Notes under the pieces: model-generated | Seen by the model: the letters and a program-made list of their open reading frames with translations, nothing else | Database searches by the model: none | What the model was told of the DNA's origin: nothing | Translations under genes and position numbers: made by a program | From: Candidatus Doudnabacteria bacterium | GTDB taxonomy: Bacteria > Patescibacteriota > Doudnabacteria > UBA920 | DNA: 64,000 nucleotides | Assembly (NCBI GenBank): GCA_963768175.1 | Contig: CAVYGQ010000002.1 | Span: forward strand, 7,270 to 71,269 | Reading direction: 5' to 3' | In this document: positions 11,458-54,772 of the stretch, in pieces | Position numbering within the stretch: the first letter of the stretch is position 1 | Layout: each line of letters opens with the position of its first letter

Positions 11458-11742
11458 TTGAAACAAAAAACAAAAATAAAATTACATATTGTGTCTCCAC
11501 AAGAGCGACAATTTATGCTTGGCTCGGGTAAGCTGATTCCCATAAATCAGGCGGCCAAAGGAACTCCGTACTCCGCGGAGTATTTGAGCTTGCTTGCAAG
11601 AAAAGGTAGGCTGGATGCCGTTAAAATTTCTCGCGATTGGTTGACTACCGAGAACGCGGTTAAAGAGTACGTGGCCGAACAAATAGAAAAGCACCAGAAG
11701 ATGATGCTTCTTTTGGGCAACTCTGGAAAGGAGGCGCCATGA
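11458..11742 (+). CDS. small HTH protein (excisionase/MerR-like HTH_17 fold), paralog of 18240..18521
   Basis: TPYSAEYLSLLARKGRLDAVKISRDWLTTENAVKEY resembles the excisionase-family HTH (AEYLGVS...G.LPAVKIGRRW). Stop overlaps the start of the giant gene (ATGA). Confidence 0.45.
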   Translation: MKQKTKIKLHIVSPQERQFMLGSGKLIPINQAAKGTPYSAEYLSLLARKGRLDAVKISRDWLTTENAVKEYVAEQIEKHQKMMLLLGNSGKEAP

Positions 11743-14700
11743 AAATTTCCAGGAAAATGGCGCGAGCCTTAGGCCGGAAAATTGTTGTACCACAAACCGC
11801 CCTTGCGGTTGTTGCGGTTGTGGTTTTAGGCAGTTTTGCGTTTTTGTGGCTGCATCCCAATAAAGCATTCAAGCCGGAAAGCTTAGTTGAAAAGCAGCGG
11901 GTATTGTTTGCATATAACCAAACCACAGCCAGCCCAGATTCCGCCATCCCTTCATTTATCCAAGTCTTAACTGGTGAAGATTTTTCATATGTCGCGGGCC
12001 CAAAAACAGAAGTTTTAGCCGCAACTCCGCCCCCCTTTAGGCAACAGGATTCTTTACCGAACGTGCAGTCTTGCAAAGAATTTCTAGCTAGCTTTGGGGT
12101 CCAAAGTAACAGGGCGGTTTCGCAGTTAGGGTTTAACATATTAAATGATTGGGAATCGGTAAGTGATTTGGCGGTAAGGTCAAATGACCAAGTTCATACG
12201 CTGGCAAATAATTTTGTATCCGACATTAAAGCACCTTACTTGGCTGCGGCCAGCGTCTTACGTCCCGCTTTGCGCGAGCAAAAAAATCAGGCCATAGCCT
12301 TAGGCGGTAAAATTAATCAAATTTACAACCAACAGCTTTTGGCGTTTGGAAATGAAGGCATTAAGTTTTTTGACGGGGTAACCTCGCTGGAAGCGTCATC
12401 TGTTTCGCGGGCTGTCGCAGCGGGGAGCCAAGTCAACAACTTCTTTGCCCAGCTGAATAAAAATTACAATGAAATTCTTTTAGCCTGCGGACAGGCAGGG
12501 ATAAAATCTTTGGACCAGCTTTCCATCTCGGAAGCAAGGCAAGCCAGCCACGCAGAGGTCATTACCATAGATGCCCAAGTTGCGTTTGCTGATTTTTACG
12601 CGCATGCCAGCGATGACGCTTTGGCTTTGGCCGAGCCGGTACAGTTGCTCTGCGATAAAGCCAATGATCAATTGTTGGCTTTAGGGCAATTTATAATCGG
12701 GCCCGGCGAGGAGAATATTTTGCCGGAGATGACGCACGAGAAGATGCTAGCGACGAAGCTTGCTAACTATGAGGCCGCCATTAAATTAAGTTCAAAGAAG
12801 GTTTTACGTACAAATGCATCAGCGCTTTTGGCAATGGCGCCAAACGGGAAGGGGCAAGTCCTTGCCGCACATACCGTTGCCCAACAGTCCGCTTCGGCTG
12901 CTTCCTTAAGCCGGCAAGTTAAAGATATCCTTTACGGTTTTATGCAGCAGGGTTTATTTGGGCTTAGTGCTTCCAATTACGCTCCCGATGGCATCTTGCA
13001 TGTGGGAGTTAATAACGGGCAGACTTACAGCGTTTCTAGTGGTCTTGGGCAAAACAGTGGCGGCCAAACTACCTCGGTAATTGGTGGATCGTTCGCGCCG
13101 GTATCTTATGTCTTTGGCGGATCGGCCAGCAACTACACCACCGGCAGCATGGGAAGCTTTACGGATTTGTCGGCCACTAATTTTAGTTCAGGCAATAATA
13201 CCAATTTAAACCTCTTAAATGTATCCGGAGCAGCTACGCTGTCTTCGGCTCTTACTGTCGCTGGCAATACTTCTTTAGCTTCCGCATCAATTACCAGTTT
13301 GGCTTTAAGTCAGCCGCTATCTTTAACTTCGGGCGGCTTGGGTATAGACGCGTCCGCCATTTTAAAGGGCGGCATTCTTGCCGGCACGGGCAGCGGCATG
13401 TTTGGCATCCAAACTGCCGGCTCCGATGGACTCTGCCTAAGCGCTTCTTCTACCGCGGTTTCAGGACTGGCCTGGACTGCTTGTACTTCGTCTTCCACGG
13501 CCGTTACTTTGCTTAACGGTCAAAGCCAGGGCAGCCAAACTTTTGCCACGGGCAGCGATGCCAATATTGTTTTGACCGTTATTTCCCAAAACGGCATACA
13601 TACTTTTACCCCAAGCTGGCAAGGGCAATTGGCTGTCAGCCGTGGCGGCACCGGCACCTCCACCGCCCCTACTGCCAACCAGATACTAATCGGTAATGGC
13701 GCTGGGGGCTACAACCTGGTGGCGACCTCCACCTTAGGTTTGCAGCCTGCGGGCAACTACTTAACTGCCGCCTTAACCTCCCTCTCCGGCATGACCGGCC
13801 CGGCCTTAACCATCGCCACCTCCACCTCGGGCAATACCTTTACCTATGCCACCTCCACCAACCAGCTGACCTTGACCATCCCCCAGAATCTCATTAACAG
13901 CGTTGCCACCTCCTCCAGCTCCGGCAGCTTCTACGTCTCGACCTCCAGCACCGGCTCCACCAACGCCTTAACCATCAACTTCCCCAATAACCTGGTGACC
14001 TCGGTTTCCGGCTCCGGCTCCCTCCTCTCTTCCGGCGGCACTACTCCCACCCTCCAGCTGCAGAACTTAACCAGCGGTGACCTGCTGTTTGGAGCCGGCA
14101 GCAACACCTTGGCCACCTCCACCAATTTGACCTTTACCGGCAATAACCTGCTCAGCGTCAACGGCTCCATTAACGCCAGTTCCTCCAACTTTACCAATGC
14201 TTCCACCAGCAACCTGACCGTCACCAGCTTTTCCAACTCCAACACCTACTGTGTCCACAGTGTTAATGGATTGCTCCAGACCACGGCCTCGGACTGTGGA
14301 GCCGGAGGCGGCGGCGGAGGCGGTTGGTCCACCTCTTCTCCAAACACCATCTATAACTCCTTTGGTACCTTAGTCGGCATTAACTCCACTACCCCCATTG
14401 CCAGCCTTACAGTGCAAGGGAAATCCGGCTCTACTACCCCCATCTTTGTGGTGGCTTCTTCTACCAACGCCCAATACTTAACCGTCCTGGCTAACGGGAA
14501 TGTGGGGATTGGGACGAGTGCTCCAGCCCAGACTTTAACACTGCAGGGCACTTCGGGAACGGATTTATTGAACATCGCTTCCTCAACCGGCACGAGTGTG
14601 CTGTATGTCGCCCAGAACGGCAATATCGGCATTGGCACCACCACGCCGGCCGCCACCTTAAACGTGCTGGGTACGGGAATTATCCAGAGCTCCACCAACA

Positions 14701-17700
14701 CCCCCACGGCTTTCCAGGTGCAAAACGCCAGCGGCACCCCAATCTTGCTGGTAGATACCACCCCGACCTTTGGCGCCACCACCACCAATTACATCGCCAA
14801 TCCGGGCTTTGAAGTCAACACCTCCGGTTGGGCGGCTTCCGGCACCGGCGCCACCATTGCCCGGGTGACTACCAATAAGTATATGGGTCTGGCTTCATTA
14901 AAGATTGACAGCTACGGCTCGGGAGCCGGCCAAGGAGCCAGCACCACTGCCTTTGTCATGAGCCCCGCCGCCGGCACCTATGTCTTAAGCTTCTACGCCC
15001 GCACCGACATCAGTTCCTCCAGCTTTAGCACTTTAATGGCCGGCTATAGCACCAGCACCCAGTTCTCCGCCTGTACCCTAAACTCCAACACGGTCTCCAA
15101 CCTGGGTTGGAGACGCTATAACTGCAGCTTTACCGTAAGCGGCCCCATTACCCAAATCTTCATCGGCCAATCCGATGCCAACCCCAACCGCACCTTCTAT
15201 ATTGATTCCATCCAGCTGCAGTTGGGCAGCGCGCCTACCCCTTATGCCATCGGCAACATCCAGCTCCGCGGCGTCATTACCAGCCCGGTGTCCCTGCAGT
15301 CCCTGTCCAACTCCGTCACCGCTTTCCAAATCCAGGATCAGACCGGAGTGTCCAACCTGTTCATCGCCGATACCTTAAACAACGCCATTGACATCGGCAC
15401 CTCCACCGGCACCTCCGTTTTGAACATCCAGGGAGCAGCCGGTACCTCTAATTCTTTATTAAACATCTCTTCCTCCACCGGCGCTTCCATGTTCTATATT
15501 GCGGCTACCGGCAGAATCGGCATTTCTTCCAGCACCCCTGCGGCAACTCTCTCTCTGCAAGGCACTTCGGGAACCAATGCCCTGTACATCGCCAGCTCCA
15601 CGGGAACCGGCTTAATGGTCATCCAGCAAAACGGTAACGTGGGCATCGGCTCCTCCACCCCCACCGGGTTATTATCCGTGCAGGGAACCAGCGGAGTGTT
15701 TACAGACTTAAGCGATCTGGTCTTTACCGGTACCGGTCCTTTAGCCGCTACCACAGTCAACGGCTTAAAGATCCAAAGCTACCTAACCTACGGGGCAGGC
15801 GGCCAGTTTAACGGCATTTACCTGCCGATAACCGGCTCCGGTACCGCCACCGGCACCATTGTTGGCATCAACATCGGCAGCATTACCGCCGGCAGCGCTA
15901 CGGCCACCGCCATCTCCATCGGCAGCGGCTGGAATTCCTACCTGAACCTTGCCACGACCGCCACCACGACCTTAATCAACATCCAGGGCACGGCCGGCCG
16001 CGACACCCTAAACATCTCTTCCTCCACCGGCGCTTCCATGTTCTATATTGCGGCTACCGGCAGAATCGGCATTTCTTCCAGCACCCCTGCGGCAACTCTC
16101 TCTCTGCAAGGCACTTCGGGAACCAATGCCCTGTACATCGCCAGCTCCACGGGAACCGGCTTAATGGTCATCCAGCAAAACGGTAACGTGGGCATCGGCT
16201 CCTCCACCCCCACCGGGTTATTATCCGTGCAGGGAACCAGCGGAGTGTTTACAGACTTAAGCGATCTGGTCTTTACCGGTACCGGTCCTTTAGCCGCTAC
16301 CACAGTCAACGGCTTAAAGATCCAAAGCTACCTAACCTACGGGGCAGGCGGCCAGTTTAACGGCATTTACCTGCCGATAACCGGCTCCGGTACCGCCACC
16401 GGCACCATTGTTGGCATCAACATCGGCAGCATTACCGCCGGCAGCGCTACGGCCACCGCCATCTCCATCGGCAGCGGCTGGAACTCCTACTTAAACCTTG
16501 CCACGACCGCCACCACGACCTTAATCAACATCCAGGGCACGGCCGGCCGCGATACTTTGAACATCTCTTCCTCCACCGGCGCTTCCATGTTCTATATTAC
16601 AAATGGCGGCAACGTCGGCATCGGCTCATCCAGCCCCATCGCTACTTTAGCCCTAACCGGCACTGTCGGGACCAACCCCTTAGTGGTTGCCTCTTCCACC
16701 GGTACCCAGCTTTTGACAATCCTGCAAAACGGCAACGTGGGCATCAATACCAGTACGCCCGGGGCGACTTTAGCCATCCAGACCCAGGCCGGAGTTAACG
16801 CTTTCACCGTGGCTTCCAGCACTGGCTCCACCACTACCTACTTTACCATTACCAGCATTGGCAACGTCGGCGTCGGCACGGCCACTCCGGCAAGCAGGTT
16901 TGTGGTGGCCGCTAACTGTTCCGGCTTCAACGCCAACCCCGGCGCCTGTTCCGATTATGCCGAATTATATCCTGCCAGCGAGGATATTACTGCTGGTGAT
17001 GTGGTGGTTATAGATACCTCGGCCTCTGCGGCCGCGGTCAGGTTAAGCACTTCTTCCTACGATTCCAACCTTTTGGGAGTGGTCTCCACTAATCCGGCTA
17101 TGGTTATAGAAGGCGACAGCGTGCAGTTTATGAACGGCAATTACCATAATGATCCGCGCCGTCCGGCCGTGGCGCTGGCCGGGCGCGTGCCAGTCAAAGT
17201 TACCAACGAGAACGGCAATATTTATCCTGGTGACTATTTAACTTCCTCGGCTTCGCGACCGGGCTTTGCCATGAAAGCCACAGGCGCAGGCATGGTTTTA
17301 GGCCAGGCGCTTGAAAGTTTTAATCCGTCTTTTGACAACGCCACAGGCACAGTTATGGTATTTATCAAACCCATGCACTATGTGCCAAAAGTGGCTGATT
17401 TGCTTCAAATTGGGGCAAATATTGACAATCAGGCATGGCTTTTGTCGCTGGCGAATTTGAATATGACCAACGCTTCGGTCTTTGGCGATATCGCCGTTAC
17501 TGGCTCTTTGGCTGTGCAAAATGATCTTCATGTGGGTGGCATAATTTACGTTGCGACTTTGAATGTGGACACCATTAACGCCAAGAAATTATGTTTGGGG
17601 CAAACTTGCGTGACCGAAGACCAGCTTAAAGCAATATTACAGTTCGTAAACAGCCAAAACCAAAATTCCTCGAACCAGCCCGTCACCTCCGGTTCGGGGC

Positions 17701-17780
17701 AAGCCGCCCCTTCTACCGGCGGTTCTTCCGATTTCTCAACAGGCTTGCGCCTGCGACGGGACAAGTTGCCCCTCAATTAG
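11739..17780 (+). CDS. giant (2013 aa) cell-surface protein: N-terminal signal anchor, Ser/Thr/Gly-rich beta-repeat region, CBM4/9-like carbohydrate-binding module, tandem duplicated repeat domain, globular C-terminal domain
   Basis: N-terminal TM. CBM4_9-like segment NPGFEVNTSGW...GTYVLSFYART...WRRYNCSFT...FYIDSIQL. Recurring T.T..L.V.QNGNVGIG..TP.A.L.V.G repeats. Exact 183-aa duplication. Confidence 0.7.
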   Translation: MKISRKMARALGRKIVVPQTALAVVAVVVLGSFAFLWLHPNKAFKPESLVEKQRVLFAYNQTTASPDSAIPSFIQVLTGEDFSYVAGPKTEVLAATPPPFRQQDSLPNVQSCKEFLASFGVQSNRAVSQLGFNILNDWESVSDLAVRSNDQVHTLANNFVSDIKAPYLAAASVLRPALREQKNQAIALGGKINQIYNQQLLAFGNEGIKFFDGVTSLEASSVSRAVAAGSQVNNFFAQLNKNYNEILLACGQAGIKSLDQLSISEARQASHAEVITIDAQVAFADFYAHASDDALALAEPVQLLCDKANDQLLALGQFIIGPGEENILPEMTHEKMLATKLANYEAAIKLSSKKVLRTNASALLAMAPNGKGQVLAAHTVAQQSASAASLSRQVKDILYGFMQQGLFGLSASNYAPDGILHVGVNNGQTYSVSSGLGQNSGGQTTSVIGGSFAPVSYVFGGSASNYTTGSMGSFTDLSATNFSSGNNTNLNLLNVSGAATLSSALTVAGNTSLASASITSLALSQPLSLTSGGLGIDASAILKGGILAGTGSGMFGIQTAGSDGLCLSASSTAVSGLAWTACTSSSTAVTLLNGQSQGSQTFATGSDANIVLTVISQNGIHTFTPSWQGQLAVSRGGTGTSTAPTANQILIGNGAGGYNLVATSTLGLQPAGNYLTAALTSLSGMTGPALTIATSTSGNTFTYATSTNQLTLTIPQNLINSVATSSSSGSFYVSTSSTGSTNALTINFPNNLVTSVSGSGSLLSSGGTTPTLQLQNLTSGDLLFGAGSNTLATSTNLTFTGNNLLSVNGSINASSSNFTNASTSNLTVTSFSNSNTYCVHSVNGLLQTTASDCGAGGGGGGGWSTSSPNTIYNSFGTLVGINSTTPIASLTVQGKSGSTTPIFVVASSTNAQYLTVLANGNVGIGTSAPAQTLTLQGTSGTDLLNIASSTGTSVLYVAQNGNIGIGTTTPAATLNVLGTGIIQSSTNTPTAFQVQNASGTPILLVDTTPTFGATTTNYIANPGFEVNTSGWAASGTGATIARVTTNKYMGLASLKIDSYGSGAGQGASTTAFVMSPAAGTYVLSFYARTDISSSSFSTLMAGYSTSTQFSACTLNSNTVSNLGWRRYNCSFTVSGPITQIFIGQSDANPNRTFYIDSIQLQLGSAPTPYAIGNIQLRGVITSPVSLQSLSNSVTAFQIQDQTGVSNLFIADTLNNAIDIGTSTGTSVLNIQGAAGTSNSLLNISSSTGASMFYIAATGRIGISSSTPAATLSLQGTSGTNALYIASSTGTGLMVIQQNGNVGIGSSTPTGLLSVQGTSGVFTDLSDLVFTGTGPLAATTVNGLKIQSYLTYGAGGQFNGIYLPITGSGTATGTIVGINIGSITAGSATATAISIGSGWNSYLNLATTATTTLINIQGTAGRDTLNISSSTGASMFYIAATGRIGISSSTPAATLSLQGTSGTNALYIASSTGTGLMVIQQNGNVGIGSSTPTGLLSVQGTSGVFTDLSDLVFTGTGPLAATTVNGLKIQSYLTYGAGGQFNGIYLPITGSGTATGTIVGINIGSITAGSATATAISIGSGWNSYLNLATTATTTLINIQGTAGRDTLNISSSTGASMFYITNGGNVGIGSSSPIATLALTGTVGTNPLVVASSTGTQLLTILQNGNVGINTSTPGATLAIQTQAGVNAFTVASSTGSTTTYFTITSIGNVGVGTATPASRFVVAANCSGFNANPGACSDYAELYPASEDITAGDVVVIDTSASAAAVRLSTSSYDSNLLGVVSTNPAMVIEGDSVQFMNGNYHNDPRRPAVALAGRVPVKVTNENGNIYPGDYLTSSASRPGFAMKATGAGMVLGQALESFNPSFDNATGTVMVFIKPMHYVPKVADLLQIGANIDNQAWLLSLANLNMTNASVFGDIAVTGSLAVQNDLHVGGIIYVATLNVDTINAKKLCLGQTCVTEDQLKAILQFVNSQNQNSSNQPVTSGSGQAAPSTGGSSDFSTGLRLRRDKLPLN
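15462..16559 (+). repeat. near-identical tandem duplication, 2 x 549 bp, inside the giant gene
   Basis: Minus-strand ORFs 15494..15760 and 16043..16309 are identical (offset 549). Sequence starting 15462 repeats at 16011. A third, diverged partial unit begins near 16558. Confidence 0.85.
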
Positions 17781-21669: not shown

Positions 21670-22005
21670 AAGTCGCGGATTTATTCGAATAGGCTGGAGG
21701 GAAAATCGGCGGGGCATCAGCAAAGAAATGTGAGTGCAATGCTATTATAGAATAACCATTGGAGATAATCAAAAAACCGCCTAAGCAAGGCGGCCTAAGA
21801 GAGACTTTCCAGCGCCTTGGACCATTTATTACCCTTCGGGTGTCAGGGCATGAACCAGTGGTCCAAGTTATACCTACAGTGTAGGCTTATTAGTTCGTGG
21901 CCGCGCCATGAACCGGAGCAAACGCAGTGAGCGATCGGTTTTTGGTGGACCGTGCGAGAATCGGACTCGCGTCTCCCGGGCTTGCCCACCCACCTTTTTT
22001 GGATA
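21670..22005 (+). ncRNA. rnpB: candidate RNase P RNA (reduced bacterial type) in a 450-nt gene-free gap
   Basis: Ordered matches to M1 RNA conserved blocks: GGAGGGAAAATCGGCGGGGC near the 5' end (cf GGAGGAAAGUCCGGGCUCC), CCUAAGAGAGAC (cf GGUAAGAGCGCAC), GAACCGGAGCAAACG (cf CCACCCGGAGCAAGG), CAGTGAGCGAT (exact match to M1), and TCTCCCGGGCTTGCC (cf ACAGAACCCGGCUUA, the P4 3' strand). No ORF in the region. Confidence 0.4.
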
Positions 22006-22084
22006 GTTGGTGGGCACTGTTTGACAAAGTTGGAATGGAAATAGCCCAAAGTATTGAGCCTTGTTTTATAGCTTAGGGCTGGTT

Positions 22085-23509
22085 TTAGGGTATTGTTACA
22101 AGATACAAACCTGTTGTTAACCCTTGCGCTAATTTGGCAACGTGTTGATAATCCGGGGCGGTTTGGGAAAAGAGAATAAATGAACCCGGGCTAATTTTTG
22201 TATTTTTTGACCAACCATAGATTCTTTCGTTCAAATAAAAAATTATGGAGGGCTCATCTCTTTGATTCAAAAGCACGGGCAAATTAGGAAAATTTGCTAC
22301 GACAAATTGGGACATCATTTTATTTTCGTAATAGTAATGAGCATAATATCCGTTGTTATTAATTTTACTTTGGTTATAAATTATCCCAGTTGTAATACAA
22401 AAAATCGCTAAAAGTATCGGCGCTATAAACTTAAAATATTTATTTTCAAACCTTTGAAACAAATCACTTAAAGATTTAGCTGTTATAACAATTAAAAATG
22501 GGTAAACGACTAAAATGTAACTTGCCAATTTGGTAACCGATGTGCTAAAAAGCAAAAAAATAAAAAAAGCGCTTATCAGCAAAAAAATGTAGGGTTTCTT
22601 TTCGGAATTTTTCTTAAAAATTTTGTAAACAAAATATAATATTGATAAAATTGACAAGCCGAGAAAAAGCCAATTTTCTCGCATATTATTAAAATAATAG
22701 AAAAAAGAAGCATTGTTATTGTCAATTGGCTGGACAAATCTTTCAAGCACTTGAAGTCCAAGGTATACGCTCCAAAACGCTTTTCCATACCTTAAGCTCT
22801 CAACAATATGCCAAGGTAAAATAACGGCAAAAAAGATTAAAAGGCCATAATAAAAAAACCTTTCTTTCAAGTAAGAAAAATTTTTTATTACTAAACTTTG
22901 AATAAAAATAATCGGCAACGGCATTAGGCCGATGATACTTTTGGTTAAAACCCCCAATCCCAAACATGCCCAAAATAGTAAGTAGTATTTTTTATTTTCT
23001 GTAGCTTTATTAAAAGCCAAAAAAGAAGCTAAGATAAAAAAAGTTACCGGAATGTCAAACTTTAAATACCAAGCTTGGGTAATAAAATAATGGACTAAAT
23101 AATAAACTACTACCGAAAAAATTCCCACTATTTCCGATTTAAATAATTGTTTTGCCAATAGATAGGTTAAAATTACAACGCCTAAAGCAAAAAGCGTGCT
23201 CCAAAAACGAGCCGCAAATTCAGTTATTCCGAATACGGCAAATGATGATTCTGTGAGCCAAAACATTAACGGCGGTTTTTCAAACCATAAACCAGTGGGA
23301 TTTTGCGGGCTTATACTTCCGTCCCAATGTAAATCTATAAAACTATGCTGGTCTATGGCTTGTCTGGCAATTTGCGCATATATGCCCTCATCCCAATCAA
23401 TCATTGGGTGGTTGCCAATTTTATAAAATAAAAGAAACCCGTAGACGGCAATCAGCAGTATTGCTAAACTGGGAAGCAAAAATTTTTTCTGCAACAATTT
23501 TTCCGACAT
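22085..23509 (-). CDS. ArnT/PMT-like glycosyltransferase (GT83/GT39 family) membrane protein
   Basis: DEGIYAQIARQAI...WFEKPPLMFWL...EFAARF matches the ArnT N-terminal signature. Many TM helices. Confidence 0.7.
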   Translation of the reverse strand: MSEKLLQKKFLLPSLAILLIAVYGFLLFYKIGNHPMIDWDEGIYAQIARQAIDQHSFIDLHWDGSISPQNPTGLWFEKPPLMFWLTESSFAVFGITEFAARFWSTLFALGVVILTYLLAKQLFKSEIVGIFSVVVYYLVHYFITQAWYLKFDIPVTFFILASFLAFNKATENKKYYLLFWACLGLGVLTKSIIGLMPLPIIFIQSLVIKNFSYLKERFFYYGLLIFFAVILPWHIVESLRYGKAFWSVYLGLQVLERFVQPIDNNNASFFYYFNNMRENWLFLGLSILSILYFVYKIFKKNSEKKPYIFLLISAFFIFLLFSTSVTKLASYILVVYPFLIVITAKSLSDLFQRFENKYFKFIAPILLAIFCITTGIIYNQSKINNNGYYAHYYYENKMMSQFVVANFPNLPVLLNQRDEPSIIFYLNERIYGWSKNTKISPGSFILFSQTAPDYQHVAKLAQGLTTGLYLVTIP

Positions 23510-23784
23510 TTATTTGTTTCGTTTAGTTGTTAAAGAGCAAGCCGTATCAGCCTATCAAAAAAGGCCACCCGCTTGCCACATCTACCCTTTCGGATAGAGA
23601 CCTTAGGAAAGGCTAAGACAAGACGGATGACCATCTTCGCTTTCCTAAGGATTTTGCCATGCCGATGATTTCTTATCGGTTTAGGCAACAATTAAATTGT
23701 ATTTAAACTATAGCAAATTTTGCCTTTTAAATAAAGTGTGTTTTTTGTCTTGGCTTTTCCTCGTATTTGGAGCATAATTTAAGA

Positions 23785-24702
23785 ATGCAGCCGGATATTG
23801 AACGGATAAAAAACGAATTAAACGAGCTTTATCAAGCCGCTTTGGGCAAGCCGGCCGGTTTTGAGTTTCTAGCTCGGACTTCAGAGTATATTGAGTTTAT
23901 TGAAACTACCCCGATACTGTTTGAGATTATGCAAAATGAAAAAAAGAAAAACGATGAATTCCTTGCCCCGTTTATGGATAAAAAAGGCAACGTCCCCAAA
24001 GCAACAAGGGATAAAATTTGGAGTGTGGTAATGCAGCAAAGCATTTGGCAACAATATTTTGTTTTTCATCTTGAAATTTACCGTGCACTTTCCCAAAAAG
24101 TGAACAAAGACCCAAAAAAAGTTTTGGAACGCATTAAAAAACGCTTTTCGTCTTTTTTAACTTTTAAAAGAGCATTTTGGCCGTTTACAAAAGATTCTCG
24201 GGTAGCCTTGGGGACAACTTTTGTTTACAAGCTTATAATGAAAGATTTTCACAAAAGGTTGTTACGTCTTTTGGAAGAATGGGCTATCCGACAAGCTTCC
24301 GGCGGTTTAGAAACAGAAATGAACATATCGGGATTGACTTTATCCTCTAGCTTTGAAGAATTAAACAGCATTTTGCATATTGGCCATTGGAAAATTAAAA
24401 TTGCAAGGCAAAAGAAACTGTCTAAAGCCCATGATATTTTAAAATATATTTTTATTGATAATGCCGACAATTTAACAGGCGATTTTTATTATTCCGAAAT
24501 AGCGCAGGATGTTTTTGGCGACAGCGAATATGCCAAACGAGAAAATGCTTGGACGCCCTACACTACGGCCTTTAATGATATTCAAAATAAAGTTATAAAA
24601 GAAACCAAAGGTAAAATTATAAACTATTTAGACATCAGTGGCGGCATAACTGGCAGAGTAAAAATAAACCCAAAATATCTAATGAAACCAAAGGAAAAAT
24701 GA
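23785..24702 (+). CDS. hypothetical protein (cargo of putative integrative element)
   Basis: ORF only. ATG at 23785 preferred over the TTG at 23767. No recognisable domain. Confidence 0.4.
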   Translation: MQPDIERIKNELNELYQAALGKPAGFEFLARTSEYIEFIETTPILFEIMQNEKKKNDEFLAPFMDKKGNVPKATRDKIWSVVMQQSIWQQYFVFHLEIYRALSQKVNKDPKKVLERIKKRFSSFLTFKRAFWPFTKDSRVALGTTFVYKLIMKDFHKRLLRLLEEWAIRQASGGLETEMNISGLTLSSSFEELNSILHIGHWKIKIARQKKLSKAHDILKYIFIDNADNLTGDFYYSEIAQDVFGDSEYAKRENAWTPYTTAFNDIQNKVIKETKGKIINYLDISGGITGRVKINPKYLMKPKEK

Positions 24703-24781
24703 TTAAGAGTAAAATTTTTATCTAAACTTTCATAAACGGCTGAATTATAAAATAGCTTCAAGAAAACTTGAGGCTTTTTTT

Positions 24782-24976
24782 ATGACCAAATTCAGCCCAC
24801 AACTGGTTCAGCGAATGCAAAAGCACTTTGCTGACAAATACGGAGCCTTGCTTACTGACGAGCAGGCCGAGGAGTATTTAGACTCTTGGGCGGATTTGTA
24901 TTTGCTGGTCGTGGGTGGCGGACGAGCTGCTCCGGCTTTGCCCGGCACGGGCAAACCGGACAGCCGTCCGCCCTGA
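24782..24976 (+). CDS. small hypothetical protein
   Basis: ORF only. Confidence 0.25.
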   Translation: MTKFSPQLVQRMQKHFADKYGALLTDEQAEEYLDSWADLYLLVVGGGRAAPALPGTGKPDSRPP

Positions 24977-25029
24977 CTTGATACTTAGCACATAGTAATC
25001 AGAATCATTAAACATTCTTAAAAATCTTT

Positions 25030-25413
25030 ATGACCGATAAACCATTAAAACTTACAATGGAAGATATTGAAAAAATGCTTTCTGAAAAATTGGACTTCGT
25101 TTTGCTTAAAGACCCTCATAACCACAACAAGACCGGCGAACCCTGTGTGAGTTGGATACTTTCCAAGGAAAAGCCGCTTAAACTGCTTAAGAATTACTGC
25201 GACCAAAAACTAAGGGAGCTTTATGAGATTAAAACCGAACTCAAAAGACAAACCAAACAGGGAGTAGGAGAATTATTTTATGACCACCAACGCAATAGAA
25301 TTTACAAACGGACGATTGAAAATTACGGGGGATATCCTGACTTACGAAGTTTTCGCAAAGCCTTTTCGGATAGGGCCGAGACCTCGTCGGGAAAAGAAAA
25401 CATCCCTTTCTAA
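25030..25413 (+). CDS. hypothetical protein; 3' end overlaps the Rep gene
   Basis: ORF only. Confidence 0.3.
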   Translation: MTDKPLKLTMEDIEKMLSEKLDFVLLKDPHNHNKTGEPCVSWILSKEKPLKLLKNYCDQKLRELYEIKTELKRQTKQGVGELFYDHQRNRIYKRTIENYGGYPDLRSFRKAFSDRAETSSGKENIPF

Positions 25414-26161
25414 GTCTGACAAACCAATGACCAGAACCCGGAACCTTTACGCCGCCAAAAAACGGCTAATGGATTGGATTAACTGTAATGTAAATGTTTA
25501 CACCGGAAAGCTTGGCCAAATCCTGCCCCCAATATTTATGACCCTGACTTTTTCCGATGATGTTACAGACCTTAATGACGCTCACCTTGAATTTAAAAAG
25601 TTTGTGGGTAAGGTTAACTATCAGGTTTTCCATACCAAAAAAGCTTGCCTGAAATACGCCGCCACCTTTGAAATCCAGCCGGGGCGGTTTAAAAAATACG
25701 GCGTGGCCGTCTGGCACTACCACGTTATCCTGTTTAACTGGGAAATGATTGATACCAAGACCGGCGTTACTGCCACAAGGAGATTTTGGGATAACATTGA
25801 TAAAAAATTGTTACAAGATATTTGGGGTAACGGTTGGGTAGACATTCGGGATATTACCCAAGTCAAAAATGTGGGCTGGTATATGACCAAGTATATGGTT
25901 AAGGACGCTAACGACCCCAAGCTTAACGGCCGGATTAGTTACTTGTTAGCCAAAGGTTTGAAACAACCCATAAATATTTATAACAGCACTTTTGTTGATA
26001 TGCTGATACACGATTTCCCCGGAGATACCTTAAGGCATTTTAAAACCGGCATTAAGCTTAATCACCTTGAATCCAAAGACCGCCTAATTTTTAACCTCTC
26101 GGAATATCCCGAACTGCGGCAAAGAAACGATGAATTGATTAAAAAATATTTTGGAGAATAG
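25280..26161 (+). CDS. rolling-circle replication initiator, HUH superfamily I (phiX174 gpA / Gokushovirus VP4-like)
   Basis: Motif 1 FMTLTF, motif 2 WHYHVILFN (HUH), motif 3 YMTKYMVK (Y-x3-Y with Lys). Confidence 0.65.
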   Translation: MTTNAIEFTNGRLKITGDILTYEVFAKPFRIGPRPRREKKTSLSKSDKPMTRTRNLYAAKKRLMDWINCNVNVYTGKLGQILPPIFMTLTFSDDVTDLNDAHLEFKKFVGKVNYQVFHTKKACLKYAATFEIQPGRFKKYGVAVWHYHVILFNWEMIDTKTGVTATRRFWDNIDKKLLQDIWGNGWVDIRDITQVKNVGWYMTKYMVKDANDPKLNGRISYLLAKGLKQPINIYNSTFVDMLIHDFPGDTLRHFKTGIKLNHLESKDRLIFNLSEYPELRQRNDELIKKYFGE

Positions 26162-26223
26162 GATTAAACATTTTGCCAATTTTGTTTTTAGAGCTATAAT
26201 GGGAAAAATTAACTTTTGTGTTT

Positions 26224-27762
26224 ATGAAAAATATCATCTACTGCCGCCGCTCGTCCGAGGATTCCTATCATCAGGTGCTTTCCATTGAGAGCCAAGAAAA
26301 GGAATTATCGGCTTTTGCGGAAAAACAAAATATTGCCGTTGATAAGATTTTTACTGAAAGTATGTCGGCAAGGCGGCCGGGCAGACCTGAATTTGAAAAG
26401 TTGGTAAAGCTAATTGAGCATAACCCCGGCTCTGTGGTTTTGGTTTGGAAGCTTGACCGGCTCGCCCGTAACCCTATTGACGAGGGCAAAATTAAATGGC
26501 TATTGCAAACCGGAGTAATTGCCAAAATTGTTACTCCCGAAAAAACTTACTTTCCCGAAGACAATGTTTTAGTGTCCGGCGTAGAGTTCAGTATGGCCGC
26601 CCAATACAGCATTGACCTGTCCAAAAATGTTAAGCGCGGCAACAGAACCAAACTGGAAAGGGGCGAATGGCCAAACCGCTCACCGCTCGGCTACATTGAT
26701 AATAAAATCACCAAGCTAAAAGAAATTGACCCGATTAGAGCGCCGATGATACGGCAAGCTTTTGAACTTTACGCTACCGGCGGTTATTCGCTCAAGTATG
26801 TCAATCAGATTTTGGAAGATAAAGGCCTACGAACCAGAGAGGGGCTTAAGTTGAGCAAGGCACTTTTACATAAAACATTAATAAATCCATTTTACTACGG
26901 CACAATGAGAAGCAACGGCAAGCTTTATTCGGGTAATCATCCGCCCTTAATCAGCAAAACCCTGTTTGATAATGTCCAAGATGTCTTAAACGGCAAACAT
27001 CATTCTAAAATTCAAAAGCATTTTTTCCCATTAAGGGGATATATGAATTGTTATTCTTGCGGCTGTGCTTTAACTGCAACGACCAAAAAAGGCCACGTGT
27101 ATTATTACTGCACCAATGGCAAGGGAAACTGCGAACAGCACAAAAAATATTTAAGGGATAAGACTACCGATGAGTTAGTTGCTAAAGTTTTTGGTAATAT
27201 CCAGTTTGACAGCAACGAAATAGAAATTGCTTATGAGGCTGCCAAGCATAAAATCCTAAAACAGGGCGGCTCAACCGATGATAAAAAATCAGAACTGGCC
27301 AAACAGCTTAAAATGGCTCAAGGCAAACTCGCAAACCTGATTGAGCTGATTTCCTCTGACCCGGAGATGAAAGAAACCCTCAAGCCTAAAATTTTATCTC
27401 TGGAGCAGGATATAAAAACAATCACAAAGCAGATTTTTGATTTAGGCAAGGTAACGCCGGAGCAACAGTTGTCAACTTTGGAACAAACAAAAAAGGCCTT
27501 CTTACAGGCCAATTCTGCTAGTTTTGATTATCTTTCCGGCGATGACGCTAAAAAGTTTGAATTGCTTAAAAAGTTACTTTGGAACCTTAAGCTCCAAGAT
27601 AACAACGTTCAATGTTTTCAGCTCAAACAACCTTATCAGCTAATGGCGGAATCGCCAAAAAAGCTGGAAATTTTTCAGTGGTGGACCGTACCGGATTCGA
27701 ACCGGTTGCCTCCACATTGCAAATGTGGCGCTCTACCAAGTGAGCTAACGGCCCGTGATTAA
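26224..27762 (+). CDS. large serine recombinase (resolvase catalytic domain plus recombinase domain plus zinc ribbon); the last 25 codons are read across tRNA-Ala on the opposite strand
   Basis: N-terminal IIYCRRSSEDS...SIESQ...VLVWKLDRLARN catalytic domain. C-X2-C...C zinc ribbon CYSCGCAL...YYYCTNGKGNC. Coiled-coil tail. Confidence 0.75.
   Translation: MKNIIYCRRSSEDSYHQVLSIESQEKELSAFAEKQNIAVDKIFTESMSARRPGRPEFEKLVKLIEHNPGSVVLVWKLDRLARNPIDEGKIKWLLQTGVIAKIVTPEKTYFPEDNVLVSGVEFSMAAQYSIDLSKNVKRGNRTKLERGEWPNRSPLGYIDNKITKLKEIDPIRAPMIRQAFELYATGGYSLKYVNQILEDKGLRTREGLKLSKALLHKTLINPFYYGTMRSNGKLYSGNHPPLISKTLFDNVQDVLNGKHHSKIQKHFFPLRGYMNCYSCGCALTATTKKGHVYYYCTNGKGNCEQHKKYLRDKTTDELVAKVFGNIQFDSNEIEIAYEAAKHKILKQGGSTDDKKSELAKQLKMAQGKLANLIELISSDPEMKETLKPKILSLEQDIKTITKQIFDLGKVTPEQQLSTLEQTKKAFLQANSASFDYLSGDDAKKFELLKKLLWNLKLQDNNVQCFQLKQPYQLMAESPKKLEIFQWWTVPDSNRLPPHCKCGALPSELTARD
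27685..27760 (-). tRNA. tRNA-Ala(UGC), CCA encoded
   Basis: Reverse complement is GGGCCGTTAGCTCACTTGGTAGAGCGCCACATTTGCAATGTGGAGGCAACCGGTTCGAATCCGGTACGGTCCACCA. G3:U70 Ala identity pair, anticodon loop TTTGCAA, T-arm GGTTCGAATCC. Confidence 0.85.
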
Positions 27763-27777
27763 TCTGGAAAGGTGGGC

Positions 27778-27826
27778 GGGTGAACAAACCGGGTGCTCTG
27801 CCACTAAGCTAACGGCCCCTGCTTCG
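27778..27826 (-). pseudogene. tRNA 5'-half remnant (GGGCCGTTAGCTTAGTGGCAGAGCACCCGG...)
   Basis: Acceptor and D-arm resemble the adjacent tRNA-Ala, but no intact anticodon or T arms. Confidence 0.4.
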
Positions 27827-28248: not shown

Positions 28249-28323
28249 TGGTGCGTGTGGCAGGGATCGAACCTGCGACCCCGTCATTATCAGTGACGTG
28301 CTCTACCACTGAGCTACACACGC
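28249..28323 (-). tRNA. tRNA-Ile(GAU), CCA encoded
   Basis: Reverse complement is GCGTGTGTAGCTCAGTGGTAGAGCACGTCACTGATAATGACGGGGTCGCAGGTTCGATCCCTGCCACACGCACCA. Anticodon loop CTGATAA. Confidence 0.85.
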
Positions 28324-28334
28324 AAATTTTAGTA

Positions 28335-28480
28335 CGGGGCGCAGCGCGCTCTAACTTCACCCAGCACCAATTCCCGTAAGCGGTCTATTCCTATCAATTA
28401 TTCTTTGGAGCAAAGGCAGCGTAGCTTGGTAGCAATGTGTTAGGGGAATTGGTGCTGGGCAAGGCTGAGCTATACGCCCA
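28335..28480. repeat. tRNA debris plus long hairpin (16-bp inverted repeat CCCAGCACCAATTCCC / GGGAATTGGTGCTGGG)
   Basis: Minus strand begins GGGCGTATAGCTCAGCC (tRNA-like acceptor and D-stem) and ends GTTAGAGCGCGCTGCGCCC. Plus strand holds a deleted tRNA-Ala-like GTAGCTTGGTAG...CAATGTG. Confidence 0.45.
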
Positions 28481-50113: not shown

Positions 50114-51694
50114 AGAAAAAATTAAAGCGGGCCGGCGGCGACATCGTAAGGCGATGCGCGCGCGGGTCCGCTAACTTTTAATATTTAACCTTCAACTTCC
50201 AATACCTGTGGTTATCTTTGGGGAATACATTTTTTGAAAAACTAAAAGGCCGCTTATTTAAGGTTGAAATTTTTTATTAACCCTAAACCAGCCACTTCTT
50301 GACAAAGATATTAAAATCATCTAAAATAGTTAAGCAATAAGTTAATAAGAAACGACTATTATGAAAAAAGCTTTATTATTAAGGAAAACGCGGTTTATGT
50401 AAAACGGCCAATTTAAATTGTGCCTGACATAGCCGCGAAAGCGGTTTTTTTGTTGAAAAGCGACACCAACACACGAATACACGCGAATGACACGAATCAA
50501 AGACCTTTAAAATTATCGCCGTATACTTACTGCTCTGCGGATCTCAGCGTTCCAATTTTTTTGGGAACACAGGCTCGTAGAACCGATTTAGAGCAGTAGC
50601 TATATGATGGTAATTGTATTCCTCTGAACAGGCCAAGGGCCTGTGCCACAGCGACGATTATCGTCAGGTTCTTTAACAACTAAATAAAATAAGCCACCAC
50701 GTATAGAATCAGGCGTGGATGGCTTATGGGTAGAAACATTGTAAGAACTAACACACCAATTAACACAGATTGAAAACAAATGAACACGGATTCGTGTTAA
50801 TCCGTAATTATCGGTGTCAATTAGTGTGCAGAAAAGAACATTGTATCCTTACGCAGTTTGCATCAAACAGTTGTAAGATTTAGGATTAAAGATTTAAGTG
50901 GCTGCAGATTGCAGTTACTTACAATTTTAATCTTTCAACTCTCAACTAATTTGGTGGTCACAAATTGCTAGTTAATACTTGTCCCCGCGAAAGCGGGGAT
51001 CAATAGAATATAAAATATATAAGGGTATACGGTGGATGCCTAGGTAATATGAGCCGATGAAGGACGTGATAGCCTGCGAAAAGCCTCGGGGAGCTGGCAA
51101 TAAGCTTTGATCCGGGGATGTCCGAATGGGGAAACCCATGCACTGGAAGAGTGCATGCCTATATGCCGTGGGGTATGTAGTGCGGGAACCGTGCGAAGTG
51201 AAACATCTCAGTAGCACGTGGAAAATAAATCAATTTACGTCGCAAGACGTAAGAGAGATTCCGTCAGTAGTGGCGAGCGAAAGCGGAAGCATATATCAGA
51301 TAAATCGGAGAATCGGATGAATCGGAAAATCAGATCAAACATTATTGAAAAATGGTGTTTTGATCCGACTTCCGACTTCCGACATTCCGATTATTCTGGT
51401 ATTAGCCCAAACCTAATTAGTGTTTTCTAGATCCCCGCTTTCGCGGGGACAGGATTAAAGATTACAGTCGTTGCTAGTTAGGCGTAATAAGTTAGAGTTA
51501 TTGTCCCGCTGTAACGGGACAGGGAATTATGTTTGTTGTTTAGCAGAACACGCCTGGAACGGCGGACCAAAGAGGGTGATAGTCCCGTATCGCGAAAAAC
51601 CATGCAATTTCCTAACTTTTTCTTGAGTACAACCAGACACGAGAAATCTGGTTGGAAATCAGGTCGACTAAGATCTAAGGCTAAATACTCATAT

Positions 51695-51735
<41 letters not shown>

Positions 51736-52376
51736 CACCCCGGAAGGGGGATGAAATAGTATCTGAAACCGTATACTTACAAGGAGTGGAAGACCTTATT
51801 CTTTTTTCCGCAAGGTTAAGGGAATGGTTAACCGCGTGCCTATTGAAGAATGATCCAACGAGTTAATCTTTAGCAGCTTGATTAAGTCTTACCAAAGACG
51901 AAATCGCAGTGAAAGCGAGGATGAATAGTCCGTATTAGGATTTTGATCGGTCGATGACTTAGGTTATCGACCGCGACAATTTCCTAAATGTTGCTAGAGT
52001 TAGACCCGAAACCCGGTGAGCTACGCATGGCCAGGATGAACGTTATGTAAAAGTAACGGGAGGTCCGGACGCACTATTGCTGCAAAAATAGGCGATGAGC
52101 TGTGCGTAGGGGAGAAATTCCAATCGAACCGGGTGATAGCTGGTTCTCCTCGAAATAGCTTTAGGGCTAGCGTCGAGAGTTCCCTTGAGAGGTAGAGCAC
52201 TGAATGGAAACCTGCTGCGCAAGCGGTAGGCTCCAACCAAACTCCGAATTCTCAAGGTCAAGATCTCGGCAGTCAGTCCGTGAGGTCTAAGCTTCACGCG
52301 ACAAATGGAGAAGAATCCACACCACCGTCTAAGGCCCCCAAATCCTAGCTATAGTGCAAAGGATGTGGGGTTGCTC

Positions 52377-52413
<37 letters not shown>

Positions 52414-52511
52414 TAAAGAAAGCGTAACAGCTCACTGGTCAAGCGATCCCGCGCCGACAATATATAGGGGCTAAGCTAGGTGCCGAAGACGTGGATCAGC
52501 GCGTAGCGCTG

Positions 52512-52649
52512 GAAATCCGAAGCACGAAATCCGAAATACGAAACAATATTTAAATTCAAAAAAATAAATCCGAAATGTCGGGTTTAGATATTTGAATTTA
52601 TGATTTAGAATTTGTTTCGAATTTCGATATTCGAATTTCGAATTTGCAG
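52512..52649 (+). other. intervening sequence (IVS) in 23S helix 45: AT-rich hairpin built from TCCGAAAT/ATTTCGAA repeats
   Basis: Inserted between ...GATCAGCGCGTAGCGCTG and TGCTATGCGCTGG (E. coli position about 1170). Long imperfect inverted repeat GGAAATCCGAAGCACGAAATCCGAAATACGAAAC ... GTTTCGAATTTCGATATTCGAATTTCGAATTTGC. Confidence 0.5.
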
Positions 52650-53729
52650 TGCTATGCGCTGGTGGTAGAGGAGTGTTGTTTGCAGGTTGAAGCGGTATGC
52701 GTAAGCGGCCGTGGACAGCAAACAAGCAAGAATGTTGGAATAAGTAATATATATAGAGGTGAGAATCCTCTTCGCCGAATATCCAAGGGTTCCAGGGCAA
52801 CGATCGTCGTCCCTGGGTTAGTCGATCCTAAGAGCGGGCCCCAAGGGGTCCGTCCGATGGAAAATATGGTTGATATTCCATAACCGCCGTAACATTATCC
52901 AAGACGGGACACATCATGGTAGCGTTAGCGTTATCTGACTATTAGCGTTGTTGTACTTGTAGGATGGTTTTTGAGGCAAATCCCAAAGACCTATGCAATT
53001 ATTTCTTACCTCGCAAGAGATGGAAGTAAACGTTGTAATTTCGAGAGTACAAAGAAACCTGGCAACGGGAATTAGCGCAAACCAAGGTGTCAAGAAAAGC
53101 GTCGTGGTTAGGTGCTAGGGTGATCGTACCGTAAACCGACACAGGTGGATGGGGAGAGAATCCCAAGGCGTCCGGAACAATGTTCGTTAAGGAACTCGGC
53201 AAAAAAGCAGGTGTACCTTAGGTATATACCTTGACCTTTTATATGCTGGGTAATGAGAAATTGGAGAAGATAATTCTCCATCAGGAAAGTGGATACCAAA
53301 CAGCCGCACTTATCATGCAGCTGGGAAGGGCTTGACCGATAATCAAGTTTCGGCCTCTGGCCGAGTCCACCTAACAAAGGAGGGAATTCCAGTGTGTGCA
53401 TCCATGGCACAGCTCCGTGCCGCTACTTCATCCTAAAGAGGGTGAAAGCAACTCCGGTCATCGGGGCTGCCTCTTTCCATAGTAGCTGTACACACTGCCC
53501 TCCTTTGGATAATCATCTAATTTTGATTATCCTCATTACCCAGCATATTAAAAGGCCCGCAGCAAAAGACCTCTCCCGACTGTTTACCAAAAACTTAGGT
53601 CCGTGCTAAAGCGCAAGCTGATGTATACGGGCTGATGCCTGGCCAGTGTCAGAAGGTTAAATCCCTTGGCGCAAGCCGAGGGGCCAAGCCCTGATGAACG
53701 CCGGCAGTAACTATAACTGTCCTATGGTA

Positions 53730-54137
53730 ACTGGAATTTATTCTTTTTGGGCGTCATTCTGAGGAGCGAAGCGACGAAGAATCTCAAAATGAGATCCTTC
53801 ACTTCGTTCAGGATGACGCCGATAAGAAGTTTGGCTGCCATAGTAAAATGTAACTATATCGGAAAAAACCTCTCTGAGAAAATTCCGAGGGAAGACTTTT
53901 GTGTCATCGCGAGTGCAGCCGAAGCGATCTTTAAAAGATTGCTTCGTCGGATGCACTCCTCGCAATGACACAGAGGAACCCGTAGAGACTACACGTTGCA
54001 CATCATTTTGGTGATGAAGATATAGTCCGGACTGCATAGCGATATGCAGAATGTGACAGAAATGATCACATTTGTCATTCTGAATTTATTTCAGAATCTA
54101 GATTCCCGCTTTCGCGGGAATGACAATAACAAATCAA
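53730..54137 (+). other. ORF-less group I intron in 23S at the E. coli 1923-equivalent site (between GGTCCTATGGTA and GCGAAATTCC)
   Basis: Exon junction matches CGGTCCTAAGGTA^GCGAAATTCCTTGTCGGG. Conserved R-like GTAGAGACTACACG and S-like GAAGATATAGTCCGG core elements. Peripheral stems carry family B palindromic repeats. Confidence 0.6.
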
Positions 54138-54692: not shown

Positions 54693-54731
<39 letters not shown>

Positions 54732-54735
54732 GTGA

Positions 54736-54772
<37 letters not shown>

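Follow-up and report, generated by a model that had tools for sequence, protein, structure and literature searches.

The DNA analysed here (the window) is a stretch of 64,000 nucleotides (nt) from contig CAVYGQ010000002.1 of a Candidatus Doudnabacteria bacterium (assembly GCA_963768175.1). Positions 22008 to 27684 very probably represent an integrated copy of a small integrative rolling-circle plasmid of 5,671 bp, belonging to a host of the candidate phyla radiation (CPR, Patescibacteria). This host is probably a relative of the Doudnabacteria; the closest relatives of the element are found in metagenome-assembled genomes (MAGs) of that group. Our confidence in the anatomy and the mobility of the element is high, and in its mechanism of target recognition it is moderate.

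Read from the left, the element opens with the attL core TGGTGG (22008-22013, + strand), which is identical to the attR core at the other end. This core belongs to the P' arm of attP (22008-22076, +), which contains a T-loop-like TTGGAAT at 22030-22036. The 22 codons that integration detaches from the end of the integrase ORF (..WW|ALFDKVGMEIAQSIEPCFIA*) are also found in this arm. Next comes the cargo: a gene for a PMT/ArnT-like GT-C glycosyltransferase of 474 amino acids (aa; 22085-23509, -) and a LOOT RNA (Rfam RF03000; 23561-23687, -), located 52 nt upstream of this gene on the same strand. The other genes are all encoded on the + strand. These are a 311-aa backbone gene (23767-24702), an open reading frame (ORF) of 64 aa (24782-24976), an ORF of 127 aa (25030-25413) overlapping the start of a 293-aa HUH rolling-circle Rep (25280-26161), and a large serine recombinase (LSR; 26218-27762), which in the integrated state measures 514 aa and has its likely start at ATG 26224. 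The native part of the LSR ends at 27684 and the later codons (+) are antisense tRNA. Here the attR core (27679-27684, +), which is the right element end, coincides with positions 76-71 of an intact tRNA-Ala(UGC) on the other strand (27679-27754, -; found with ARAGORN, Rfam 68.7 bits). An initial annotation of this locus had listed the 311-aa protein, two small ORFs, the Rep and the recombinase in this order, and all of these ORFs are present accordingly. Its boundaries (23540-27826) were drawn wrongly: the actual element runs from 22008 to 27684 and includes the PMT gene and LOOT.

The same annotation proposed that an HUH Rep and an LSR are paired in one integrative element, and profile searches agree. 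In hidden Markov model (HMM) comparisons of the kind that it had recommended, the Rep matches the Pfam family PF23343 (REP_ORF2-G2P, E = 1e-13) and PHROGs 3419, 3584 and 942, which carry annotations as rolling-circle initiators. Motif I (FxTLTF, here FMTLTF), motif II (HUH, here HYH) and motif III with its two tyrosines (YxxKYxxK, here YMTKYMVK) are all found. Across the 22 sequences of our Rep alignment (A5) the residues F86, T88, T90 and F91, H146-Y147-H148 and Y201-K204-Y205-K208 are invariant or nearly so. A search of the Rep profile against the PDB yields no significant match. In line with the earlier description of this protein as Microviridae-like, its two-tyrosine motif is phiX174-like and the element contains the sequence CTTGATA; Pfam assigns the protein to PF23343 and not to the phiX174 A-protein family.

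The recombinase contains the Pfam domains Resolvase (4.1e-21), Recombinase (5.1e-15) and Zn_ribbon_recom (2.1e-06) and matches the integrase family phrog_95 (2.9e-80). Its profile aligns over the full length with the SPbeta integrase (9dxh, 3.7e-25) and with the C-terminal domain of the A118/LI integrase (4kis, 1.3e-11). In the catalytic region Y8, R10 and S12 are invariant in the integrase alignment (A1). The protein thus combines a catalytic-serine resolvase domain, a recombinase domain and a zinc ribbon with the short att sites and the motif shift described below, as is characteristic of LSRs. Enzymes of this class recombine attP with attB through a 2-bp staggered cut and depend on a directionality factor for excision.

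A putative double-strand origin is located at 24940-25005 (+). It consists of a GC hairpin with compensatory changes (24940-24952) followed by a block of 37 nt (24969-25005), which is unchanged in four elements whose remaining sequence is about 70% identical and which lies upstream of the 127-aa ORF. The 30-mer of this origin is present once in the window. Judged from sequence, the 37-nt block is a putative double-strand origin with its nick on the + strand. In the free circle, the two-tyrosine HUH Rep (phiX174 gpA/RepSA-like) would nick CTTG|ATA (24977-24983) and start rolling-circle replication, the position of the nick being predicted.

A generic repeat search around the locus returns no flanking repeats; such a search is blind to the element ends because the shared core measures only 6 bp. 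The ends were instead placed by aligning related elements. One of these, a sister element from a Doudnabacteria MAG (L005/L016), shows 80.6% identity to window positions 24775-27703 and adjoins a tRNA-Tyr rather than a tRNA-Ala; its homology to the window ends at the CCA end of the tRNA. On the left side, positions 22008-22043 match (97% over 36 bp) a site in L005 that precedes its tRNA-Tyr by 4.9 kb. This 36-bp block opens in both genomes with the bases of a tRNA 3' end (TGGTGG in the window, TGGTGGGCA in L005), and therefore the element can be delimited as 22008-27684 with a unit of 5,671 bp.

Further sequences show the element both on its own and missing from its site. An ENA contig (L002) is 100% identical to window positions 22010-27680 and has a length of exactly one 5,671-nt unit; its att arms are the same as those of the window, and joining its end to its start yields the attP sequence. 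A Logan contig (L001) consists of the element plus approximately 30 nt of flank per side, which fits a branch at k = 31 at both junctions. The comparison with an empty tRNA-Ala site, advised in the initial annotation for defining attL and attR, is provided by the metagenome contig L099. This contig is syntenic with the right flank of the window, contains the same tRNA-Ala and then continues directly into the sequence of the left flank, with no insert in between. After removal of 22008-27678 the window aligns colinearly with L099 (86% over 226 nt across the junction). The same tRNA-Ala without the element is also seen in L097 and L098. In the free circle, where the right end is joined to the left end, the attP junction would read ..TTTTTCAG TGGTGG GCACTGTTT.. 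(as synthetic junction sequence ..GGAAATTTTTCAGTGGTGGGCACTGTTTGAC..), against ..GGATAGTTGGTGGACCGTACCGG.. for attB at the empty site. A search for the attP junction pattern in IMG/VR gave no match.

Logan contigs of run ERR10755942 break, in addition, at the CCA-proximal end of an outer tRNA remnant and in the variable loop of the inner tRNA-Ala (both described further on). These extra breaks hint at more strain-level variation at the locus.

The overlap between the recombinase and tRNA-Ala(UGC) had already been pointed out, and it is complete: the tRNA lies wholly within the LSR ORF and the overlap up to the stop codon amounts to 84 nt. The 3' acceptor strand and the T arm of the tRNA form the B' arm of attB. 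The element supplies only 3-6 nt of the tRNA 3' end, the identity block between attL and attR being 6 bp (TGGTGG). The suggestion that integration reconstitutes the tRNA 3' end is right in that the tRNA is intact after integration, but overstates what the element contributes. Circularisation in silico of four elements (window, L005, L003 and L010; 4.9-7.6 kb) shows that the circular-form integrase ORF extends 54-69 nt beyond the core in all four, and therefore attP lies inside the integrase gene, as had been suspected of its 3' end. For the window this form comprises 509 aa and ends in ..WWALFDKVGMEIAQSIEPCFIA. The four tails read WW-ALFDKVGMEI.., WW-ALFDKVGTEI.., WS-GLWNEVRTEI.. and WW-TLWCDVRTEI.., and the tail is conserved across subfamilies of only 45% identity. 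Since the ORF crosses attP, integration swaps the last 22 codons of the LSR for antisense-tRNA codons; the replacement tail amounts to 26 residues for the window element and to 2 for L005.

A total of 17 attL/attR pairs could be delimited, anchored on the T-loop. Their identity blocks range from 6 to 20 bp and have tRNA positions 71-74 as common intersection, which is where strand exchange is predicted to fall. The T-loop TTCGAAC of attB has a counterpart TT[C/G]GAA[C/T] in the P' arm exactly 5 bp further from the core in 16 of the 17 pairs (P' arm consensus TGGGAyGAnGTTGGAAC). In L010 an unusual TCGGAC covaries, appearing in attP and attB alike. The 5-bp shift agrees with the published signature of the LSR zinc-ribbon domain, whose motif covers bp 16-24 of the attP half-site and bp 11-19 of the attB half-site (PMC3783163). 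When these published numbers are applied, the centre comes out at approximately tRNA positions 70-73, in agreement with the identity blocks.

The most economical reading of these sequence patterns is that the enzyme would recognise the acceptor/T-arm half of the tRNA gene, that the T-loop would serve as the zinc-ribbon motif, and that a short mimic in attP would keep the tRNA intact. In such a scheme the element would move between free circle and chromosome when the LSR recombines attP, which spans its own stop region, with attB at the 3' end of the tRNA gene. The zinc-ribbon domain most likely reads the T-loop-encoding TTCGAAC, and the mimic in attP (TTGGAAT/TTCGAAC) is shifted outwards from the centre by 5 bp, an offset also seen in characterised serine integrases. 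The strands would be exchanged within tRNA positions 71-74, at a dinucleotide that can be placed there provisionally. The tRNA would stay intact because attP holds a 6-14 bp copy of its 3' end. Integration would also fuse the truncated integrase to antisense-tRNA codons, giving free and integrated enzymes with a different C-terminus, and would let transcription of the integrated int gene converge on the tRNA gene; the tail swap may have a regulatory role. T-loop recognition combined with a short acceptor-end mimic would explain why the integrases of the window and L005, although 85% identical, are found in different tRNAs.

A number of observations weigh against parts of this picture. The attP core of the window (TGGTGGGCA) fits a tRNA-Tyr end better, and only 6 of its 9 bases match the occupied tRNA-Ala; the window copy may represent a recent target switch or a secondary-site insertion. 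No convincing inverted copy of the T-loop motif appears in the P and B arms, where we looked for it, and no recombination directionality factor (RDF) is recognised, although one of the 311-, 64- and 127-aa proteins may be a candidate for this role. The DNA site by itself can account for the conserved integrase tail, given that the tail residues VRT and VGT are encoded by GTTCGAACG and GTTGGAACG. With respect to mobility, the circularity of L002 is deduced from its exact unit length only, and attP and attB of the window element are deduced from assembled contigs rather than from reads of its source sample. Logan contigs near the element also break at 21949/50 (end of L015) and 27709/10 (end of L014). 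Because of these extra breaks, a de Bruijn 'bubble' reading of L001 is suggestive at most. As for the origin, the 37-nt block is taken as a double-strand origin nicked on the + strand by virtue of CTTG|ATA, which we take to be the nick motif of phiX174 and pC194-type replicons; this resemblance is presumed.

The element is one of many. Scanning one genome per GTDB species with the integrase alignment returned at least 560 loci, and the counts given here are based on the best 80 of them. An antisense tRNA overlaps the integrase 3' end in 67 of these 80, with about 20 anticodon types among which tRNA-Gln is the commonest, and in 61 of the 80 our own HMM detects a Rep immediately before the integrase and in the same orientation. 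The pairing of Rep and serine recombinase, earlier called uncommon, is indeed so in the searchable literature, but within this CPR integrase clade it is the rule. Homologs of the integrase number more than 1,600 at E<=1e-40, and those with a name are CPR MAGs. Among the best 120, most end in antisense T-loop codons (..DSNP.. or ..ESNP..) and about nine end in an attP-type tail (..(L/W)(F/W)D.V(G/R)T..). Three homologs of the latter type were looked up; each lies on a small contig that lacks a tRNA and encodes a Rep immediately before the integrase. A word-indexed search yields 18 homologs of the Rep. In every Rep context examined an LSR comes next, its 3' end overlapping an antisense tRNA; targets include tRNA-Gly (L003), tRNA-Tyr (L005-L009) and tRNA-Ala (L010). 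Two of the three contigs looked up for their attP-type tail could be recognised as free circles by terminal overlap, one of about 4.25 kb (L011, overlap of 121 nt) and one of about 5.7 kb (L013, overlap of 30 nt); both encode a Rep and an integrase with such a tail.

We conclude that this family of tRNA-integrating rolling-circle plasmids is large and spread through the CPR bacteria. A search of the literature on serine integrases at tRNA genes in CPR finds no description of it, though island-mapping databases may hold uncommented cases. A wider generalisation is offered tentatively, and we would rate its chances below even. It states that this LSR clade is apparently confined to CPR and specialised on tRNA 3' ends by using the universally conserved T-loop as zinc-ribbon motif, that the plasmids hop between tRNA species by changing an attP mimic of about 9 bp, that the ORF-spanning attP acts as an integration-state switch, and that LOOT is a leader of nuclease/defence-type cargo.

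The four circularised elements share the order of a 260-324-aa protein, a 64-69-aa ORF, a 127-aa ORF, Rep and integrase, and carry a variable cargo segment between the left end and the 260-324-aa gene. The 311-aa protein, originally regarded as cargo, belongs to the backbone of the family: homologs are found at the same position in L003, L005, L010, L079 and L095. Its N-terminus is variable and helical, and only a C-terminal domain of about 115 aa is conserved (alignment A3). The structure prediction recommended earlier was informative in part. Residues 192-305 reach a predicted local distance difference test score (pLDDT) of 80-92 in the AlphaFold2 (AF2) model, but Foldseek finds nothing below E = 0.7 in the PDB; the top non-significant matches are winged helices of the OmpR/KdpE type. 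Tentatively, the modelled C-terminal domain might be a winged-helix-like DNA binder. Roles as cargo or as capsid were considered for the 311-aa protein and rejected on account of its conservation as a backbone gene and the empty PDB search.

The 127-aa ORF measures exactly 127 aa in four elements (63-82% identity). Where it stands alone, substitutions fall on its third codon positions, and the variability halves in the overlap with Rep. The N-terminus of Rep is itself homologous across the wider family. From these sequence data we take the 127-aa ORF to be real and dual coding with the start of Rep. The alternatives of a spurious overlap or of a frameshift extension of Rep were rejected in view of the codon-phase pattern and the independently conserved Rep N-terminus. 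Its single-sequence fold is poor (pLDDT 60). The 64-aa ORF is conserved with 36-86% identity in all four delimited close relatives and is a candidate regulator or RDF.

The cargo of the window element is the PMT glycosyltransferase with its putative LOOT leader. The gene matches Pfam PMT_2 (1.2e-20) and PMT (5e-20) as well as the ArnT-like NCBIfam model (1e-25, below cutoff), and it is contained in the L002 unit. The GC content is 0.32 over 22001-23000, the region of this gene, against roughly 0.40-0.48 in most of the window. Relatives carry other cargo, namely an HNH nuclease, Mrr/McrB-like proteins, a PycTM protein, a CfrBI-type restriction enzyme and DNA methylases.

LOOT scores 56.6 bits in the window, above the gathering threshold of 46.4, and covers the model at full length (positions 1-121). 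Using a simple pattern search followed by cmscan we identified it in 13 further integrase loci at 70-89 bits: L079 (2457-2577), L092 (7888-8004), L057 (9315-9425), L069 (2300-2409), L077 (1703-1828), L062 (8536-8648), L076 (8533-8645), L093 (1090-1201), L059 (7848-7967), L095 (6808-6924), L045 (3472-3588), L028 (7908-8030) and, with three copies, L036 (766-886, 8742-8854 and 18400-18513). The copies are located inside, or a few kb upstream of, Rep plus serine-integrase modules. LOOT is followed within 64 nt by an ORF in the same orientation in 12 of 14 cases; the downstream genes encode nuclease-like DUF2726 (6 cases, 1e-29) and DUF559-like proteins (2), another PD-(D/E)xK protein and, in the window, PMT. 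The orientation of LOOT tracks this downstream gene and not Rep (of the 14 copies, 3 share the strand of Rep), which favours a 5' leader over a single-strand origin. The latter was rejected for the same reason, and in the window LOOT is also opposite to the putative nicked strand. The arrangement suggests that LOOT would be the 5' leader of the downstream cargo gene rather than a free-standing sRNA. Rfam lists it as an sRNA gene, whereas here it is found inside Rep plus integrase elements and directly upstream of same-strand cargo. A search of the literature for its function found nothing, and the main text of PMC5737381 makes no mention of the motif.

A second family of conserved proteins, of about 310-330 aa, is encoded just upstream of LOOT in L059 (7974-8939), L092 (8034-8963), L069 (2454-3440) and L045 (5999-6928), in all cases on the - strand. 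Its N-terminus (..SGHxLT..YYxCSxKQKGxC..) resembles the zinc-ribbon segment of the integrase, and the protein could be an accessory or directionality factor. Some genomes hold several LOOT copies (L036) or two Reps (L043, 7072-7893 and 12645-13445) within 20 kb, and in L041 the attL/attR identity extends over 103 bp; this suggests tandem or neighbouring insertions of family members.

The initial annotation reported a tRNA 5'-half remnant at 27778 and took it as debris of integration. A 5' part of an outer tRNA-Ala is indeed present at 27785-27818 (-), but it is not debris of this element, as its 3' part (21943-21984, -; 91-96% identity to the 3' part of the L010 tRNA-Ala) lies on the other side of the element, just left of attL. 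Both parts belong to the host. With the element taken out, the locus consists of the outer 5' part, a 34-nt spacer, the intact inner tRNA-Ala, a 24-nt spacer and the outer 3' part, the spacer ends forming an imperfect inverted repeat. The outer tRNA-Ala is thus interrupted in its anticodon loop by approximately 137 nt that hold the inner one. The same nesting, with compensatory changes in the outer stems, is found at the empty site of L099 (about 12275-12485), so that the remnants are older than the element and were not left by it. Only the inner type is present at the locus in L097 and L098 and only the outer type in L010. RNAfold returns a cloverleaf within a cloverleaf. Joining the outer halves leaves a 9-nt loop, so that the outer copy, judging from this fold, is probably dead. 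Two further claims about this region are not supported. The supposed tRNA fragments at 28335-28480 show no tRNA similarity beyond 8-9-mers and are not recognisable tRNA pieces, while an intact tRNA-Ile(GAU) at 28249-28323 had been missed. The idea of a recurrent integration hotspot likewise finds no support, because the nested tRNA-Ala is older than the element and conserved at the empty site.

Could the window element be an integrated single-stranded DNA phage, that is a Microviridae- or Inoviridae-like prophage in which one of the proteins of unassigned function serves as capsid or morphogenesis protein? Its best Rep families are phage-type (REP_ORF2-G2P; PHROGs 3419, 3584 and 942), its two-tyrosine motif and CTTGATA origin are phiX174-like, the 311-, 127- and 64-aa proteins have no assigned function, and distant Rep relatives (at most 31% identity) reside on IMG/VR viral contigs of 3.5-9 kb. 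Nonetheless, not one of the 43 Rep relatives in IMG/VR carries the integrase. Capsid and morphogenesis genes are absent from the matches: in PHROGs the 5 backbone ORFs match no capsid, pI/Zot or other morphogenesis family, and in Pfam and NCBIfam the 6 element ORFs scanned (PMT included) match none either. In the 311-aa protein conservation is confined to a small C-terminal domain resembling a DNA binder, the variable positions of relatives hold plasmid-typical restriction, methylase and nuclease cargo, and the free circle of 4.3 kb (L011) leaves no space for a virion module. We therefore regard a prophage as improbable.

An even smaller chance is given to a fixed, immobile remnant, in which a domesticated island has settled at tRNA-Ala and the overlap between ORF and tRNA has no function. 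It would fit a window that displays the integrated state only, with an attP core matching the occupied tRNA at no more than 6 of 9 bases, an altered integrase tail and no recognised RDF. Such an island, however, should not recur as a 100% identical unit-length contig in another assembly (L002, with equal att arms), nor should a Logan contig end about 30 nt beyond both junctions. None of the backbone ORFs is disrupted, the site is empty in a closely related genome, and sister elements with 80% nucleotide identity are inserted in a different tRNA. Hardly credible, finally, is the view of the tRNA as cargo of the element or as a duplicate made by it instead of the chromosomal target. The intact tRNA-Ala inside the recombinase ORF, the disruption of an older tRNA-Ala at the locus and the internal tRNA of some family members (L062) might be quoted in its favour. 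Yet the same tRNA-Ala occupies the syntenic element-free locus in L099, L097 and L098, the window and L005 elements are homologous only as far as the CCA end of the tRNA, and neither L002 nor the free circles L011-L013 include a tRNA.

An integrative rolling-circle plasmid therefore remains our preferred interpretation, and by analogy the element would work like one of the pSAM2 type. The actinomycete integrative and conjugative elements (AICEs) pSAM2 and SLP1 are likewise small and plasmid-like, exist free or integrated, replicate as rolling circles with an HUH Rep and integrate at a tRNA 3' end that is restored. AICEs employ a tyrosine integrase with Xis, have an att identity of tens of bp and an FtsK-like transfer gene, and live in Actinobacteria. 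The window element differs in its LSR, its att identity of 6-14 bp, its CPR host and its lack of a transfer gene: no FtsK/Tra-like ORF is found among its genes, and its relation to RepSA (Pfam PF20199) is limited to a faint or precomputed match on several Reps of the family. AICE membership is thus supported by integration at a tRNA 3' end and not by these other features.

With the phage LSRs (A118/LI, SPbeta, phiC31 and Bxb1) the enzyme shares the Resolvase and Recombinase domains, a zinc ribbon with coiled coil, short att sites and a motif positioned 5 bp further out in attP. The characterised phage enzymes target protein-coding or intergenic sites and usually disrupt them, and tRNA-gene targeting is usually credited to tyrosine integrases. 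The clade described here differs, at the loci examined, by addressing tRNA 3' ends of about 20 anticodon types, by keeping the tRNA and by having attP within the integrase ORF. Its Rep resembles the phiX174 gpA and pC194-type initiators in the HUH motif, in Y-x-x-K-Y-x-x-K and in the CTTGATA of the origin block, but is placed in PF23343 and not in the phiX174 A-protein family, and the element has no capsid genes. An attP within a gene that is altered by integration is known from tyrosine integrases, namely that of SSV1, where the integrase gene is split in two, and those of mycobacteriophages with integration-dependent immunity, where the altered gene is the repressor. The window element is similar in that integration alters the 3' end of an element gene and the free and integrated proteins differ, but the exchange is limited here to the final 17-22 codons of a serine integrase.

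To our knowledge, almost no plasmids or genetic tools have been described for CPR/Patescibacteria. A compact replicon and an integrase with delimited attP, attB and putative origin, present in many CPR lineages, could seed vectors for these organisms. A clade of tRNA-targeting serine integrases with a readable rule bears on the evolution of LSR specificity, on the re-aiming of these enzymes and on LSR-based genome engineering. The orphan LOOT RNA gains a genomic home and a testable role. Given the restriction, methylase, nuclease and glycosyltransferase cargo, the elements are likely vehicles of defence and cell-surface variation in CPR.

Some features elsewhere in the window deserve mention. 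The 23S rRNA gene (51009-55190, +) measures 4,182 nt against 2,925 positions in the model, implying large insertions or introns; these are frequent in CPR rRNA genes. A 5S rRNA gene follows at 55654-55769, no 16S rRNA gene or spacer tRNAs are adjacent, and tRNA-Ile and tRNA-Ala are found 23 kb away. Finally, an ORF of 2,013 aa (11739-17780, +) without a Pfam family accounts for the GC-rich region at 13-17 kb (0.54-0.57 against roughly 0.40-0.48) and probably encodes a giant surface protein.

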